Position numbers and translations under genes: made by a program. From Collinsella sp. (GTDB taxonomy: Bacteria; Actinomycetota; Coriobacteriia; Coriobacteriales; Coriobacteriaceae): DNA of 64,000 nucleotides. Below the pieces are notes generated by a model. The model was not told the origin of the DNA. It saw only the letters and a list, made by a program, of their open reading frames with translations, and did no database searches. Position 1 is the first letter of the stretch; each line of letters starts with the position of its first letter. Shown one piece after another: positions 1 through 50,951 of this stretch. Location: contig DBGEDL010000056.1 of the NCBI GenBank assembly GCA_048375035.1, positions 1,298 through 65,297 of the forward strand. The letters run 5' to 3'.

Positions 1-915
1 GATGTCGGCGATCTCCTTGACCTTGCCCTCTTTGGAGAGCTTGACGATGCGCTCGATGATGACATCGGTCTTGGTGGTGTAGGGGATTTCGTACACCTCG
101 ATGATGCGCTCTTCGGGAATCCAGCGCCAGCGGGAGCGGATCTGGAAGCTGCCAAGGCCGGTCTCGATAATCTTTTCCATCTCCTCGCGGCGGTAGATAA
201 TCTCGCCGCCGGTCGAGAAGTCGGGCATGGGCATGTACTCGAGCAGGTCGCAGTCGGGGTCCTGCAGGTAGTGCATTGTGGCAGTGCAGACCTCGTTGAG
301 GTTGAAGCCGCAGATGTCGGACGCCATAGCGACGCCGATGCCCTTGTTGGCCGAGACGAGGATGTTGGGGAACGTGGTGGGCAGCAGGCGCGGCTCCTTC
401 ATGGCGCCGTCGTAGCTGTCGACGAAGTCGACCGGGTCCTTGTCGATGTCCTTGAAGATCTCGGCACTGATGGGGGAGAGCTTGGCCTCGGTATAACGTG
501 AGGCGGCGTAGCTCAGGTCGCCCGAATAGTACTTGCCAAAGTTGCCCTTCGACTCTACGAAGGGGGCAAGCAGTGCCTCGTTGCCGGTGGCTAGGCGCAC
601 CATCGTCTCGTAGATCGCGGCATCGCCGTGCGGGTTGAGCTTCATGGTCTGGCCCACGATGTTGGCGCTCTTCTGGCGCTCGCCCTTGAGCAGGCCCATC
701 TTGTACATGGTGTAGAGCAACTTGCGGTGCGAGGGCTTAAAGCCGTCGATCTCGGGGAACGCACGCGAGACATTGACGCTCATAGCGTAGGGCATGTAGT
801 TGACCTCGAGCGTCTGCGTGATCGGCTGGTCGGTGACCTCGGAGTGCAGGCCGATGACGTTCTCGGCGTTGACCTGCTTTTTCTTGGGCTGGTTCTTCGT
901 CTTCTTCTTTGCCAC
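1..915 (-). CDS. Type IIA DNA topoisomerase subunit A (GyrA/ParC family), 5' part only; gene runs off the window start
   Basis: Not in the ORF track (edge-truncated). The minus frame is open from GTG at 915 (AAGAGGAA about 7 nt upstream) to position 1. Hand translation: VAKKKTKNQPKKKQVNAENV..NYMPYAMSVNVSRAFPEIDGFKPSHRKLLYTMYKMG..KLNPHGDAAIYETMVRL..LSYAASRYTEAKL (active-site Tyr block). It lies 46 nt downstream of the subunit B gene. Confidence 0.85.
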   Translation of the reverse strand, partial: MAKKKTKNQPKKKQVNAENVIGLHSEVTDQPITQTLEVNYMPYAMSVNVSRAFPEIDGFKPSHRKLLYTMYKMGLLKGERQKSANIVGQTMKLNPHGDAAIYETMVRLATGNEALLAPFVESKGNFGKYYSGDLSYAASRYTEAKLSPISAEIFKDIDKDPVDFVDSYDGAMKEPRLLPTTFPNILVSANKGIGVAMASDICGFNLNEVCTATMHYLQDPDCDLLEYMPMPDFSTGGEIIYRREEMEKIIETGLGSFQIRSRWRWIPEERIIEVYEIPYTTKTDVIIERIVKLSKEGKVKEIADI

Positions 916-3187: not shown

Positions 3188-5008
3188 TTAGCAGCCTGTA
3201 ACTTGCAGCGAAGTATTGAGCCAGTCGCTGTCCGGGCGGCTGATCAGGCGCGCGTTGTTATAGGCCATCTTCATGGTCAGAATTGTCTGGCCTATATAGG
3301 CGCCGGACTCCATGAGCTCGACCACCAGGGCGACATCGGGCCGGTCGTTTTCGGTCAGGTCGAGCGGCAGCAGCAGGCTCATGGTGTTCTTGGTGGGGTA
3401 GAACGCCGGAACGGCGGTCTTGAAGTTCCACTCGACACGCTTCTGGGCGAGCTCAATGGCATCGTCGAGTCTGTTGATCAGACGACGCTTCACCTTGGCG
3501 TTGTCCTCAACGGCTTCGCGCAGTTCATCATAGGCGGCCTTCTTTGACGCATCGTCATCTGCGCTAACCGCTCTCGACAGTGCTTCGAGCGCATCGCTGC
3601 TTCCGCGCAACTCCTCGGCAAGAAACGCCTCGGGCAGGCGGTCGATGTTGTCGAGCAGGATATGGTCAACGTCGCGCTGGAGCGTTCTGTTGCCGTCAAA
3701 GAGCAGGTCTTCCTTCTTTTCAAAATAGGATGCGCGCTGCGGAAGCGGGTCAAACGACGCAACGAGTTTCTTTCCCCACTGTTTTGAACCTGCTTTGCAA
3801 AAGGCCTCGAAGCGCCATGGACATCCGCTGCTCGATGGCGAAAAGCAGGCATAAATGGCCTCGTAGGTGGGGTCGACGAGTCCGGTGTTAAATGCCGCGA
3901 TTCCCTTATCGATGTCCTCGAGAACCTTGTTTTCGGACTGAAGGCGATAGAAGGTGTACATGAGGTAGCTGCGCAGAATCGAATAGTCCTTGGAGTCCTC
4001 GTCCTGGTCAAAGCCCCATTTTTCGTCCAGCGCGTAATTCGCAAGACTCTCGATCATGCTATCGATGTTGCCCAGATATGCCCAGTCGGTGAGCGCATGG
4101 CCGGCACGCACCTTTTGGAAAGCGAAGTTATCGACATAGCAGACACGCCAAGGCAGCGCACCCGGGCGATCCATCTTACGGTCGCGCGTTATCGACACCT
4201 CGACCGGAGTTTCCCCGTCGTTTCGAAGAACGCTGATCGGAAAGATAACCTTGCCCTCGTAGAAGCGGATGATTCGGTTGGAGAAGGCGAATTTCCAATC
4301 ACGATCTAAAAGAGCCGCGACGTCGATGTCGCGCTTTGCGTACTCGATGATCGTGTCGGTCCATCGCTGCGAAGTCCATGCGAACGATGAGAGTGCCTCG
4401 CCAAGGGATGCAAATTCCTCGACGAGGTCTTGCGGAACGGGGCCCTCGAGATAGTCCTCGGTCTCCTGCATGCGCTCGAGATTGCGCTCTAGGAGCGGGG
4501 GCAGTGAGGTCGCAGCGGGGCGAGCACCGGTATCGGCGTTCGTGCTTGCAATGGGTTGCGTATGGGTGTCGATGCTCGGGGCTTTGGTCTCATAGTCTCG
4601 GCGCAGCTTCATGCGATCGGCAATGGGGACATACGAGAGAAACCAGGGGAGGCCGTCCTGTGCATTTTCGGCAATCGACAGTTCAACGGCCGATCCATTT
4701 GCAGTCTCCAGGTGTGTGGCAAAGCTGACCGTTTTGGGGTCTCGCATATAAAGCGCGCCCTGGGCGTACGCTTCTTTCCAATCGGCGCAAAGCAGCGCCA
4801 TGGCATCAAGCCCCGGCCCATAGAGGCTCGAAAGCCTGGATTTAGAGGCATACGGAATCGATGCAAAGCTCGTCAGGTCGTCGCCAAAGGAATCAATGAG
4901 CTCGGCGGAGACGGGGGAAGCTTTAAACTTGGGCGAATCGGCAGCCCTGGCGATAACCAGACGCTCCTCCTCGCTCAGGCTGTTCTGTCCATACTTTGCT
5001 TCTTCCAT
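3188..5008 (-). CDS. DUF3825-like protein with a duplicated N-terminal domain of unknown function
   Basis: ORF 3188..5023 is the longest form (TTG). ATG 5008 is preferred because GGAGGAG lies 6 nt upstream. The C-terminal part (DWAYLG..ILRSYLMYTFYRL..FNTGL..WNFKTAVPAFYP..SLLLPL..LTMKMAYNNARLI) matches my recollection of the DUF3825 family. Confidence 0.7.
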   Translation of the reverse strand: MEEAKYGQNSLSEEERLVIARAADSPKFKASPVSAELIDSFGDDLTSFASIPYASKSRLSSLYGPGLDAMALLCADWKEAYAQGALYMRDPKTVSFATHLETANGSAVELSIAENAQDGLPWFLSYVPIADRMKLRRDYETKAPSIDTHTQPIASTNADTGARPAATSLPPLLERNLERMQETEDYLEGPVPQDLVEEFASLGEALSSFAWTSQRWTDTIIEYAKRDIDVAALLDRDWKFAFSNRIIRFYEGKVIFPISVLRNDGETPVEVSITRDRKMDRPGALPWRVCYVDNFAFQKVRAGHALTDWAYLGNIDSMIESLANYALDEKWGFDQDEDSKDYSILRSYLMYTFYRLQSENKVLEDIDKGIAAFNTGLVDPTYEAIYACFSPSSSGCPWRFEAFCKAGSKQWGKKLVASFDPLPQRASYFEKKEDLLFDGNRTLQRDVDHILLDNIDRLPEAFLAEELRGSSDALEALSRAVSADDDASKKAAYDELREAVEDNAKVKRRLINRLDDAIELAQKRVEWNFKTAVPAFYPTKNTMSLLLPLDLTENDRPDVALVVELMESGAYIGQTILTMKMAYNNARLISRPDSDWLNTSLQVTGC

Positions 5009-25817: not shown

Positions 25818-25831
25818 AAGCACCAGTAAAT

Positions 25832-26013
25832 CGAAGGTGAATGGTTTCCCGAGAAGTGAACGACCTAATTTGGACCCCTGAAGCACCCACGTTTTTCGAC
25901 GCTAAAACCGCAGGATTTGAGTGATAAAACCGCAGGAATTGGCCTTCCCAAAGTGTCGATGCATCGAGGGTCCGATTTCACCCGTTCACTTCGCGGAAAA
26001 GCATTCACCTTCG
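25832..26013. repeat. 182-bp long imperfect inverted repeat (MITE-like or structured element)
   Basis: 31-nt termini CGAAGGTGAATGGTTTCCCGAGAAGTGAACG (25832-25862) and the complement of 25983-26013 match 28/31. Weaker complementarity continues inward. The centre holds a 13-nt direct repeat TAAAACCGCAGGA at 25903 and 25925. Confidence 0.6.
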
Positions 26014-42557: not shown

Positions 42558-42938
42558 CTACTGCATGGTTTCGGGAGCTACCAGGTCAAGCATTTCGTGC
42601 AGCTTGTCGCGTGTGACGCCCAGGGTTTCGGCTTGGCTCGCCGCTTTTGCAAGTAGCTCTTCGATATGGCAGAGCTGGCTTTCGCGTAAGAGTTCTTGGT
42701 TGCCCTCAGCGACAAAGCACCCCTTGCCCTGCACGGTGCAGATAAACCCGAGCTGCTCCAAGTCGGCGTAGGCGCGCTTGGTGGTGATAACGCTCACACT
42801 CAGGTCGCTGGCAAGCGCACGGATACTGGGGAGTTTGGCTCCCGCAGCGAGTGCGCCCGATAGGATCTGAGCTTTGACTTGCGAGGCTATCTGCTCGTAG
42901 ATGGGCTTGTCGCTCGAATTGGATAGGATGATGTCCAC
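42558..42938 (-). CDS. GntR-family regulator, YtrA-like short subfamily
   Basis: GTG 42938 with TAAGGAG RBS. PIYEQIASQVKAQILSGALAAGAKLPSIRALASDLSVSVITTKRAYADLE. 126 aa, with no large effector domain. Confidence 0.9.
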   Translation of the reverse strand: MDIILSNSSDKPIYEQIASQVKAQILSGALAAGAKLPSIRALASDLSVSVITTKRAYADLEQLGFICTVQGKGCFVAEGNQELLRESQLCHIEELLAKAASQAETLGVTRDKLHEMLDLVAPETMQ

Positions 42939-42965: not shown

Positions 42966-42999
42966 GTGTATATAACCGTTAAGCACAGTATATATACAC
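42966..42999. promoter_or_regulatory. AT-rich inverted repeat GTGTATATA-N16-TATATACAC; likely operator/promoter of the GntR-ABC operon
   Basis: Read directly, 28 nt upstream of the GntR start. Contains TATATA -10-like hexamers. Similar in type to the B. subtilis YtrA operator as I recall it. Confidence 0.5.
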
Positions 43000-43049: not shown

Positions 43050-43345
43050 TCTCAATCTGTAACATCTGGAACCGATTTGGACGGCCACCTGTTACAGATC
43101 GAGATTTTACTGGCGGGCCCCACCTGGTTGTCTCAATCTGTAACAACTGGAGAAGATTTTGGCTGCTAGATGTTACAGATCGAGACATTGGCCACCCGTC
43201 TATCCTTATATCTCAATCTGTAACAGATGGACCCGTTTTGAGTGGCTAGATGTTACAGATCGAGATCTTTCTGGGACGCCCACCTGTTTGTCTAAATCTG
43301 TAACAGGTAGAGGTTCAAAAACCGTCTAGATGTTACAGATTGAGA
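43050..43345. repeat. 4 x 80 bp array of eight alternating-orientation 15-mers (TCTCAATCTGTAACA / TGTTACAGATCGAGA) with 25-26 nt gaps
   Basis: Read directly. Forward sites at 43050, 43131, 43211 and 43291; reverse sites at 43090, 43171, 43251 and 43331. Only two substitutions occur across all eight copies. Confidence 0.95.
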
Positions 43346-43491
43346 CAAATTGCTGCGGAGTGCCGCCATCGATTGCTACCCAGGCCCCAACTGATGAATT
43401 TGTCCTGATAGGCACCCTAGAGCGAGATTTCGCGGCTACAATAGACGGGTTACATCGACGTAATGCATATAGAACGCAAGAAAGGATCCGC

Positions 43492-45105
<1,614 letters not shown>

Positions 45106-49492: not shown

Positions 49493-50875
49493 TTAGCGGG
49501 CTGTCGCTTTGGCTTGGGTGACACGATAGGTGCGTGCCGGGTGGCAGAGTAGCACCGCCACGACCATAAAGAACGCCGTGGTGCCCAGGCTGATGGGGTA
49601 GACCATCATGATGTTCGCAAAGGTGCGGAAGTGCGGGAACACGCAGAACACCCAATAGAAGCGGATGCCGCAGACGCAGATCATGGTGATGAGGGCGGGC
49701 GTGAGCGAGATACCAAAGCCGCGCAGGTAGCCGGACATGTTTTCGTAGAACATGCTAAAGGCGTACGCCGGGAAGATCGAACACACGCGGATATAGCCGA
49801 TCGAGACGATGTTGGGATCGCTGTTGAACAGCGACAAGATCTCGCGCCCCAGGCCGACAATAACGATGATCGTGGTGAGCGCGACGATACCGCCTTCGAC
49901 CAGGCAGACCTTGAGCGTTTTGGTGCAGCGGTCGATCTGGCGGGCACCGTGGTTTTGTCCCACAAAGGTGGTGCACGCCTGGCTAAAGCTGTTGAGCAGG
50001 TTGTAGCATACGTACTCCAAGCTCATAGCGGCGCTCGATGCCGCCATGACCTCGGTGCCCAGGCTGTTGATGGCGGACTGGATGATGATGTTGGCTACGG
50101 CAAAGACGGCGCTTTGGATGCCGGCTGGCAGGCCGATCTTGACGATGCGCTTGAGGGCGAACGGGTCGATAGCCAGGTCGCGTGGGGTGACGCGGACGAC
50201 GGAGCCGGTCTTGAGCAGGCGGATAAAGAGTGTGGCGGCGCTGACGGTGTAGGCGATGGCGGTGGCGATGGCGACGCCCGCGACACCCCAGTGGAGTACG
50301 GGGACAAAGATGAGGTCCAGGCCAATGTTGAGGACGGTGGACACGGCAAGCGCCTGCAGCGGCATGCGGGTGATGCCGACGGAGCGGAAGATCGCAGCCT
50401 CAAAGTTGTAGAGCATGATCGAGGGCATGCTCAGCAAAAAGACGCGCAGGTAGAGCGAAGCGAGCGGCATGGTTTCGGCGGGAACGTTGAGGGCGGCGAG
50501 CATGGGCTCGGCAAAGATCTCGCCCAGCGCGATGACGATAAAGCCCACGAGCGCCATTAAAATCGAGGTATGGACGGCGCGTTTGACCATGTTCTGATCG
50601 TCGCGGCCGATAGCGTTGGCGATGACCACGTTGGAGCCAAGCGACATGCCAATAAACAGGTTGAGCATAAGGCTGGTAAGCGGAACATTGGAGCCGACCG
50701 CCGCCATGGCGAGGGTTCCCTGGTCGCCCGAGAAGTTGCCGATAATGACCGTGGCGATGAGGTTCGACAGCTGCTCCAAGATGCTCGTGGCGGCCACGGG
50801 GAAGGCGAACAGGGGAATATTGCGCCACAGCGAGCCGGTGGTCATATCGATGTGCTTAGATGCGGCATCAGCCAT
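49493..50875 (-). CDS. MATE-family efflux transporter
   Basis: 12-TM protein. N-terminus DMTTGSLWRNIPLFAFPVAATSILEQL is typical of MATE. Confidence 0.9.
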   Translation of the reverse strand: MADAASKHIDMTTGSLWRNIPLFAFPVAATSILEQLSNLIATVIIGNFSGDQGTLAMAAVGSNVPLTSLMLNLFIGMSLGSNVVIANAIGRDDQNMVKRAVHTSILMALVGFIVIALGEIFAEPMLAALNVPAETMPLASLYLRVFLLSMPSIMLYNFEAAIFRSVGITRMPLQALAVSTVLNIGLDLIFVPVLHWGVAGVAIATAIAYTVSAATLFIRLLKTGSVVRVTPRDLAIDPFALKRIVKIGLPAGIQSAVFAVANIIIQSAINSLGTEVMAASSAAMSLEYVCYNLLNSFSQACTTFVGQNHGARQIDRCTKTLKVCLVEGGIVALTTIIVIVGLGREILSLFNSDPNIVSIGYIRVCSIFPAYAFSMFYENMSGYLRGFGISLTPALITMICVCGIRFYWVFCVFPHFRTFANIMMVYPISLGTTAFFMVVAVLLCHPARTYRVTQAKATAR

Positions 50876-50951
50876 ACGCTCTCAATCTCTAACATGCTAT
50901 ATCGTGCTTATTTGCGCAGACGATGATACTCCTAATGCAACCAGTCGGCAC

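Follow-up and report, generated by a model that had tools for sequence, protein, structure and literature searches.

A Collinsella-wide family of intergenic tandem-hairpin repeats and its candidate protein partner

To our knowledge, the partnership between REPINs and RAYTs, that is, between hairpin-forming doublets of repetitive extragenic palindromic (REP) sequences and REP-associated tyrosine transposases, is the only well-described case in bacteria of a short-repeat population persisting over the long term with a dedicated single-copy enzyme; it has been studied mainly in Proteobacteria. The bacterial interspersed mosaic elements (BIMEs) of Escherichia coli have gyrase and integration host factor (IHF) as protein partners. 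In the REPIN-RAYT system, REP doublets forming hairpins go with a single-copy RAYT gene, which is vertically inherited, has its own repeat clusters beside it and, where paralogues exist, has one repeat family for each of them (PMC3116915, PMC5581495). Proteins of the AbiEi family also bind inverted repeats adjoining their own genes; in the case of AbiEi and Rv2827c, these are one or two inverted-repeat sets located upstream of the gene (PMC7319586). Here, we analysed a 64-kb stretch of Collinsella DNA (hereafter, the window), in which an array of alternating 15-nt sites lies upstream of prfC. The repeat family of this array, named F1 here, is dispersed in the intergenic regions of Collinsella, and F1 arrays bracket a gene coding for a protein of ca. 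356 aa, p356. Our favoured explanation, to which we give a probability of roughly 55% on sequence evidence, is that F1 is a REPIN/BIME-like repeat population, the prfC array being one member of it, and that its arms are candidate sites of p356, which is not a RAYT.

The array extends from 43050 to 43349 and consists of four hairpin units with an 80/81-bp period, i.e. eight arms of the TCTCRATCTGTAACA type (43050-43345), plus a CAAA extension at its right end. Successive arms lie on opposite strands, their starts being 40, 41, 40, 40, 40, 40 and 40 bp apart, and all the gaps between them measure 25 or 26 nt. As located by pattern search, the + strand carries arm 1 (43050-43064, TCTCAATCTGTAACA, no mismatch), arm 3 (43131-43145), arm 5 (43211-43225) and arm 7 (43291-43305, TCTAAATCTGTAACA, one mismatch), and the - strand carries arm 2 (43090-43104, TCTCGATCTGTAACA on that strand), arm 4 (43171-43185), arm 6 (43251-43265) and arm 8 (43331-43345). 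Each hairpin encloses a 25-nt loop (loop 1, 43065-43089; loop 2, 43146-43170; loop 3, 43226-43250; loop 4, 43306-43330) and is separated from the next one by a linker of 26 nt (linker 1, 43105-43130) or 25 nt (linker 2, 43186-43210; linker 3, 43266-43290). The loops are, in order, of the T, T, T and A types, loop 4 being in the reverse-complement orientation of loops 1-3; it belongs to the hairpin nearest prfC, which is kept in all orthologous loci. Tandem Repeats Finder described the array with a period of 80, 3.2 copies and 71% matches. When up to three mismatches were allowed, the arm pattern was found 14 times in the window vs. 1.48 expected, eight of these 14 matches being those of the array, and none of 100 shuffled windows reached 14. 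An earlier reading of the window, made from the sequence alone (the sequence-only reading), had listed eight alternating sites at these positions, with 25/26-nt gaps and an 80-bp unit, and the pattern search confirmed all of this: the feature is real and statistically clear.

Outside the array, the only close match in the window is a lone F1-like site, TCTCAATCTCTAACA (50880-50894, one mismatch), located immediately upstream of the start of a - strand gene (49493-50875); a partner arm at a distance of 40 on either side was not found. This site could be a chance match or a solitary remnant.

A distant blastn search of the GntR-prfC intergenic region against PLSDB returned a single record, a 900-kb sequence of Collinsella aerofaciens, which was matched at 19 places; since this record was fetched in part, genome-wide counts are estimates. 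The genus-wide sample was obtained by an exact-pattern scan with one genome per species, and the array counts given here and below rest on the matches listed. At least 120 loci displayed the F1 pattern, almost all of them in Collinsella, with at least 148 arrays; three single-site matches among those listed, in Bacillus, Clostridium and a proteobacterium, were judged to be due to chance. Among the matches listed, arrays comprise two (17 arrays), four (53), six (38) or eight sites (15), with a few odd numbers and one array of 16. Counted from start to start, a + site is followed by a - site after 40 bp in 348 of the 351 cases listed, and a - site by a + site after either 40 bp (129 cases) or 41 bp (85 cases). 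The F1 unit can be described as a palindromic hairpin element of 55-63 bp, with two inverted 15-nt arms and a strict, oriented 25-nt loop, repeated every 80/81 bp with oriented linkers of 25/26 nt in between. Conservation extends 4 nt past each arm (TTTG|TCTC...GAGA|CAAA, or AAYR on either side) and stops there. The arms themselves hold only a TGTnACA mini-palindrome, and their flanks (TTTG or AAYR) do not include a conserved GTAG-like motif. The sequence-only reading had proposed a consensus reaching beyond the 15-mer, which is to be corrected to these ca. 4 nt outside each arm; the 'TCTRG' part of that consensus belongs to the oriented loop and not to the paired stem.

As a whole, the array upstream of prfC belongs to a Collinsella-wide, intergenic tandem-hairpin family with variable copy number, as one of its copies. 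F1 is an ordinary REP/BIME-like kind of array and apparently an undescribed family, no description of Collinsella REP elements or of its motif strings having been found in the open-access literature. It was therefore an overstatement that the array fitted no known repeat class, since a dispersed, intergenic family with variable copy number is of the REP/BIME kind; the first of the four hypotheses put forward in the sequence-only reading, a BIME-like cluster of a REP-type element, was right in kind. That reading had also asked for hundreds of clusters at gene 3' ends as the mark of an ordinary REP/BIME family: clusters do recur, at dozens per genome, and in divergent, convergent and tandem contexts alike.

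In the C. aerofaciens record NZ_OY725717, three F1 arrays were observed within 7.3 kb (locus L133: 5678-5973, 7081-7216 and 12771-12986), and none in the first 50 kb (L132), which is made of dense core-gene operons, indicating an uneven chromosomal distribution. The record (NZ_OY725717.1 in PLSDB) is labelled 'plasmid 6' and carries recA, ftsK, lexA and der, among others, i.e. it is a 900-kb piece of chromosome; the plasmid label seems to be an artefact that arose at deposition or labelling.

Concerning the candidate partner, two F1 arrays ca. 1.1 kb apart bracket the p356 gene in ten listed loci and in the C. aerofaciens record, so that p356 is bracketed on both sides in 11 out of the 11 Collinsella loci holding it. 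Upstream, ca. 27 nt containing a GGAGG separate the end of the array from the ATG; downstream, the stop codon is followed by the next array at a distance of 9-42 nt. One copy of p356 (WP_148332043 in C. aerofaciens) was found in the 900-kb record, where it is annotated as hypothetical; its neighbours are a hypothetical protein and an amidohydrolase, and no AbiEii/DUF1814 toxin gene was found beside it. As a baseline, 114 kb of unselected Collinsella sequence contained 35 intergenic regions of 80 bp or more; a single one of them carries an F1 array, and the families F2 and F3 introduced below are absent from all of them. The genes located between paired arrays are p356, NRAMP and AAA-ATPase genes; no known transposase is among them, although p356, if it were a transposase-like enzyme, would provide the F1 arrays with an unconventional parent element.

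Two paralogues of p356 have flanking repeats of their own, the three proteins being mutually 36-39% identical. The first one, p332 (WP_368156979 of C. aerofaciens), is always flanked by F2, with CGGAAAGYGCRTCCC arms and a 62-bp period; in locus L150, six hairpins are found upstream (2310-2673) and nine downstream (4033-4578) of its gene. Many loci have an additional F2 array, located ca. 2.0-2.6 kb upstream of p332. The second one, p341, is always flanked by F3, which is made of GAGCGTGGAWAATC direct repeats and one hairpin (L184, 2583-2698 and 3984-4155). Within the 0.9 Mb around F1 arrays, the numbers of F1, F3 and F2 sites are 725, 68 and 24, respectively. At greater distance, a Collinsella relative (L134) possesses a syntenic p356 orthologue (58% identity) with arrays of the same architecture on both sides: alternating GTGCRYATCTCAGAC arms, 25-nt gaps and an 82-bp period bracket the orthologue, and a third array nearby has GTGCRYATCTGTGAC arms. 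These arrays (253-709, 1788-1966 and 3256-3515) bring two arm types together within 3.5 kb. A 43% identical homologue (L135) has its own 65-bp palindromic element, with one copy on each side, and relatives of p356 in C. stercoris and Enorma carry their own flanking motifs. A metagenome scan with the family alignment provided 80 loci, most of which share exact strings of 14-30 nt between their upstream and downstream flanks, and repeat clusters concentrate directly beside the family gene in these loci. In Tsukamurella (T. tyrosinosolvens), two distant p356 homologues have shared palindromic or composite repeats of 45-131 nt on both sides; these were observed at 1004-1085 and 2065-2140 in L219, and at 971-1101, 2092-2222 and 2251-2381 in L220. 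The arrangement of a gene with its flanking repeats may be widespread in Actinomycetota.

Sequence searches with p356 gave no match in Pfam, NCBIfam, PHROGs or PDB, and its family comprises 4443 clusters at 50% identity (E ≤ 0.001). An AlphaFold model built on a 95-sequence alignment reached a predicted local distance difference test score (pLDDT) of 91; a shallow alignment gave a useless model (pLDDT 46). According to Foldseek, the C-terminal domain resembles the catalytic domain of I-Bth0305I (probability 0.97, E-value 0.16, template-modelling score of 0.63 on the target) and the NGO0050 endonuclease-like protein, all of these matches being weak. In the alignment, D264 and E278 are invariant, and D280 and K284 nearly so, in an E-x-D-G...K arrangement. 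The AbiEi models of PADLOC match 45 of the 95 family members (best E-value 3e-10), and the Pfam model AbiEi_4 matches three. These data support a predicted two-part organisation for the p356 family, with an AbiEi-like winged-helix DNA-binding half and a PD-(D/E)xK-like nuclease half. No description of AbiEi together with DUF559, and no paper containing the F1, F2 or F3 motif, was found in the open-access literature searched.

Across the family, invariance exceeds 95% at arm positions 1-3 and 6-15, and loops and linkers follow only a loose consensus; arms are ca. 94% identical to their consensus vs. about half for gaps. When the partner arm was defined by geometry alone (+40 from exact-match seeds), 287 out of 295 partners (97%) had no more than three mismatches, with a mean of 0.94, so the conservation of the arms is not an ascertainment artefact. 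Divergence at orthologous positions was calculated for 343 locus pairs, split into four bins by overall identity. From the first to the fourth bin, it amounts to 0.026, 0.046, 0.059 and 0.069 for arms and to 0.079, 0.198, 0.214 and 0.285 for array gaps, values to be read with the caveats that gap divergence can be inflated where paralogous units are aligned out of register and that near-consensus arms were required in one partner, which can deflate arm divergence up to ca. two-fold. The corresponding values are 0.018, 0.059, 0.105 and 0.149 for other intergenic DNA, and 0.048, 0.119, 0.160 and 0.219 for third codon positions. Arms evolve roughly three times more slowly than synonymous sites, and gaps at an approximately neutral rate. 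For arrays of the same length compared without alignment gaps, arms differed by 3.2% and gaps by 9.6%; the window compared with L045, a single pair, showed no arm/gap difference. Arms behave as constrained sites and gaps as neutral DNA whose length hardly changes. Selection on the motif with drifting gaps, as deduced in the sequence-only reading, was thus rightly inferred (arms 3-7% vs. gaps 8-28% and third codon positions 5-22%).

What is constrained is the individual arms at their fixed spacing, and not the hairpin. Stem pair 5/51 is complementary in 53% of the hairpins vs. 50% expected, and stem pair 4/52 in 66% vs. 68% expected; no compensatory change was found at the variable stem positions, pairing there being at chance level. 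Position 5 is mismatched in 46% of the hairpins, the arm combinations in the 347 hairpins listed being GG (103), AG (86), AA (82) and GA (75). The A/C mismatch that becomes a G-U pair in a bottom-strand transcript, as pointed out in the sequence-only reading, is accordingly local to units 1-3 of the window, and a strand-specific argument based on it does not hold for the family.

These figures bear on a role at the RNA level, as a terminator, an mRNA 3' stabiliser or a small RNA, which was also the last of the four earlier hypotheses (a tandem-hairpin RNA). Folding of the array RNA is strong on both strands (-138.4 and -137.3 kcal/mol, z about -11.5), but this is a trivial consequence of inverted repeats, the two strands do not differ, and loops are less self-complementary than expected by chance. 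The gene context of the arrays, established with a simple open reading frame caller based on the GC at codon positions and checked on the window, is relevant too. All 116 arrays listed are outside genes: the flanking genes are divergent for 39, convergent for 38 and tandem for 39 of them, compared with 121, 103 and 359 adjacent pairs, respectively, in the background. Arrays reach 10-60 nt from stop codons and are mostly more than 100 nt away from start codons. Their position 10-60 nt past stop codons in tandem and convergent contexts would suit an RNA element, but one third of the arrays are located between divergent genes, the orientation of the loops is random relative to the neighbours, and neither a strand bias nor covariation was seen. 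Rfam and tRNA scans of the window gave no match, and promoter and terminator consensus scans around the array returned nothing, including at the TACAAT hexamer discussed below. A known structured RNA or an intrinsic terminator is ruled out by the lack of an Rfam match, a terminator-like site and covariation, and an RNA-level element of whatever sort is very improbable as the general role. The placement of the arrays is that expected of a sequence tolerated where promoters are undisturbed, and it fits poorly with a dedicated operator or terminator. No positional pattern relative to gene function was found among the array neighbours.

The gaps have an orientation of their own. The oriented loop consensus is about gcTAGaccCgtTTTtgGCgcCTAgm, and the base profile of A-type loops is the exact reverse complement of that of T-type loops, also outside the centre used for classifying them. 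Linkers are oriented as well: on a given strand, both of their ends carry runs of either T or A. Three A/T runs per unit lie at fixed positions, whichever strand carries them. The orientations of neighbouring gaps are nearly independent. The coupling between loop and linker orientation is weak, so that insertion of the whole 80-bp unit in either orientation does not account for the pattern. Alternating sites, together with loops and linkers present in both orientations almost independently of their neighbours, are in favour of an invertible, shufflon/inverton-like substrate or of an operator specific to the adjacent GntR or to prfC. However, single-gap flips or multi-gap inversions, i.e. mixtures of direct and inverted gap matches, were found in none of 441 orthologous array pairs, so the scrambling of orientations is old and not due to ongoing inversion; no recombinase gene was found adjoining the array. 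As for an operator, F1 stands beside unrelated genes at dozens of loci and therefore cannot be specific to GntR or prfC, and the conserved candidate operator at this locus is an AT-rich palindrome outside the array. Inversion between species, the third of the earlier hypotheses, is largely refuted, and we regard both the invertible substrate and the locus-specific operator as scarcely credible.

A phased platform for a protein, as suggested by the remaining earlier hypothesis, is compatible with the data, and p356 is now available as a candidate for that protein. In its purely structural form, this explanation takes the arms as phased sites for a nucleoid-associated or structural protein (p356 or another one), kept by host selection for chromosome organisation or supercoiling, without mobility; for E. 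coli BIMEs, binding of gyrase or IHF has been proposed. Purifying selection on arms at orthologous loci, the invariant 25-nt loop in 348 of the 351 hairpins listed, the A/T runs at three fixed positions per unit on either strand, the stability of arrays at orthologous positions without empty sites, and a modal array of two to three hairpins instead of one are all in agreement with it. Against it, arm sequences differ between lineages at the syntenic locus and are homogeneous within each genome, which is easier to account for if arms are renewed from a source than if hundreds of static sites mutated in concert. Moreover, arrays have been lost or halved without obvious consequence, and they follow no pattern by gene function. 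We consider a platform without mobility rather unlikely.

The history of the arrays was followed at orthologous GntR-prfC regions, six of which are among the at least 120 loci listed and six were obtained via GntR homologues. All the orthologous GntR-prfC loci carry an array, of two or four hairpins, with size steps of 80 bp. In L039, the array corresponds to hairpins 3 and 4 of the window fused directly to the left flank, and L127 contains a chimeric unit in which loop 2 is followed by linker 3; both point to in-register deletion or duplication between arms. Gap pairs within arrays are rarely alike, only six reaching 80% identity, which indicates that arrays are not recent tandem duplications. 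No array of another species mapped to an array-less spot in the window. Beside the NRAMP gene of L106 (about 431-452, reverse strand), one arm and a loop are left, fused to a neighbouring terminator-like hairpin; the same position has two to four hairpins in other species, so this array was lost by deletion. F1 is old, vertically inherited and positionally stable.

Such a history might also be that of a decaying fossil, akin to a miniature inverted-repeat transposable element (MITE), or of a neutral minisatellite, without any protein partner and with the flanking of p356 being coincidental. Copy number varies in unit steps, as in variable-number tandem repeats (VNTRs), the half-hairpin of L106 is a remnant, no transposase was found adjoining the arrays, and gaps evolve at a near-neutral rate. 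Neutral decay does not, however, account for the fact that arms remain ca. 94% identical to their consensus next to gaps that are about half identical, nor for an arm rate some three times lower in situ than that of third codon positions. In addition, loops are free of indels, no target-site duplication was found, and a chance association of three paralogues each with its own flanking family is very unlikely given the 1-in-35 baseline. We therefore hold this explanation to be improbable.

At the prfC locus, the array lies between a GntR-family regulator gene (42558-42938, - strand), which heads an ABC-transporter operon, and prfC (release factor RF3; 43492-45105, + strand), both being outside the element. 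The AT-rich palindrome GTGTATATA-N16-TATATACAC (42966-42999) is also outside the array. It is conserved at all the orthologous loci, as is, on the other side of the array, a block holding the TACAAT hexamer (43437-43442, + strand) between the array and prfC. As these conserved blocks lie outside, the array sits between, and not within, the likely control regions. The palindrome is likely the GntR operator, and its separateness from the array, already pointed out in the sequence-only reading, is borne out. Comparable palindromes precede more distant GntR homologues in another gene neighbourhood (L123 and L131). GntR homologues at 79-81% identity, which have another gene neighbourhood and no arrays, were uninformative. 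The array at this locus lies in a dispensable stretch between the GntR operator/promoter and the conserved prfC promoter block, and probably plays no regulatory part specific to the locus.

With regard to our favoured explanation, a REPIN/BIME-like population with p356 as its partner, the following scheme can be proposed. Array size changes by multiples of 80 bp, through deletions or duplications that keep the arms in register. With moderate confidence, we infer that the arms are recognition sites on DNA for p356, which would bind them, and that the relation between protein and repeat is like that of RAYT and REPIN, i.e. one vertically inherited gene with its own flanking repeats, and a separate family for each paralogue. 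Since there is no sign of recent movement, a role of p356 in spreading F1 is pure analogy. The putative association of this protein with the repeats is apparently undescribed.

Several observations weigh against the link between F1 and p356. In some loci, F1 likewise brackets NRAMP and AAA-ATPase genes, which calls for caution as to adjacency for F1 alone; it is the paralogue-specific pattern that carries the argument. F2 and F3 are mostly local to their own genes, which would suit plain autoregulatory operators. It is possible that they are autoregulatory in the style of AbiEi operators, in which case F1 could be an operator family that escaped and spread. Even though, in the 80 metagenome loci, repeat clusters were found in 55 of 104 intergenic regions next to the family gene vs. 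9 of 84 other intergenic regions (odds ratio of 9.4), these loci are phylogenetically non-independent, and several members of the p356 family have no flanking repeats. Concerning the protein, p356 itself falls below threshold with the AbiEi models (PADLOC, Pfam AbiEi_4) and other family models, and Foldseek gave no match at E ≤ 0.001. As to mobility, F1 arrays occupy orthologous positions across species without recent movement being seen; no empty site was found in 645 flank-matched comparisons, where the differences consist of copy number and of one half-hairpin remnant, and there was no k-mer or offset excess indicative of target-site duplications among 122 non-redundant array flanks.

A bolder proposal, which we advance tentatively and deem somewhat more likely to be wrong than right, draws on the analogy with RAYTs. 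According to it, a protein made of an AbiEi-type winged helix-turn-helix domain and a PD-(D/E)xK domain would recognise, and perhaps nick and propagate or maintain, its own tandem-hairpin repeats; this system would have evolved independently of REPIN-RAYT in Coriobacteriaceae, possibly in Actinomycetota at large, with at least three protein-repeat pairs in Collinsella and the prfC array as an F1 'offspring'. If this were true, the partnership between a repeat and an enzyme would have arisen more than once, here with an unrelated protein in abundant human-gut actinobacteria. It would also provide a function for a large unannotated protein family, and F1, F2 and F3 would make up a three-pair natural specificity experiment within one genome. 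If the protein link fails, the result is an ordinary, previously undescribed REP-like repeat family. From a practical point of view, the variation in copy number between Collinsella strains makes F1 arrays potential typing markers, and these arrays cause breaks in assemblies and give rise to spurious calls of a 'structured RNA' or a 'regulatory site'.

Among the known systems to which F1 can be compared, clustered regularly interspaced short palindromic repeats (CRISPR) are ruled out, as already stated in the sequence-only reading, by the alternating orientation, the mutually homologous gaps and the absence of cas-like neighbours. F1 shares with MITEs the features of a small non-coding intergenic element with terminal inverted repeats, but neither a target-site duplication nor a parent insertion sequence with matching ends was found. 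A separate element of ca. 185 bp was observed at 25829-26013 of the window, with terminal inverted repeats of ca. 31 bp (CGAAGGTGAATGGTTTCCCGAGAAGTGAACG ... CGTTCACTTCGCGGAAAAGCATTCACCTTCG); copies of it with 78-81% identity are present in other Collinsella loci (L039, 2065-2248; L126-L128, about 4610-4794). This element looks MITE-like and is unrelated to F1. Unit-wise variation in copy number between strains is also known for the VNTRs of the mycobacterial interspersed repetitive unit (MIRU) type, which, unlike F1, are direct repeats without alternating inverted arms. With the AbiEi operators, the likeness lies in the DNA-binding half shared by the p356 family. The differences are that no AbiEii/DUF1814 toxin gene stands beside p356, that its C-terminal half is nuclease-like and not an antitoxicity domain, and that the repeats lie on both sides of the gene, with up to 8-18 sites, F1 being moreover spread over dozens of unrelated loci.

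The E. coli BIMEs come closer to F1 in architecture: both have units of alternating orientation and variable number, gaps of two types that alternate and are fixed in length, and an extragenic location. F1 differs from them in the sequence and length of its arms, and in that its stem is formed by two neighbouring arms, whereas the palindromic unit of BIMEs is itself a stem-loop. Furthermore, no RAYT was found in the sequence searched, one third of the F1 arrays lie between divergent genes and not in transcribed 3' regions, and the copy number is of dozens per genome and not of hundreds as for REP/BIME.

The most extensive likeness is with REPIN-RAYT. Both are built on short extragenic repeats whose inverted pairing yields hairpins, at times lined up in ordered tandem clusters, and both reach dozens of vertically inherited copies in a genome. 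In both, clusters of its own repeat family adjoin a single-copy gene, and each paralogue goes with a repeat 'flavour' of its own (three in SBW25, at least three in Collinsella). The differences concern the partner, which is AbiEi-like and PD-(D/E)xK-like here instead of an HUH/Y1 transposase, as well as the repeats: the arms of F1 are not palindromes themselves and lack a 5' tetranucleotide of the GTAG type, the mode is two to four hairpins vs. single REPINs, and loops and linkers are half-diverged instead of near-identical. A tblastn search with E. coli RayT gave no Collinsella match in PLSDB at E ≤ 10, and a best E-value of 0.48 in 1.0 Mb of Collinsella sequence around arrays, which covers part of any genome. 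The hosts differ as well, F1 being found in an actinobacterium, whereas the REP-associated RAYT groups were analysed in Pseudomonas and Enterobacteriaceae (PMC5581495). Because the defining enzyme and the form of the unit are different, F1 does not belong to REP-RAYT; it is a variant of that kind, and not a member.

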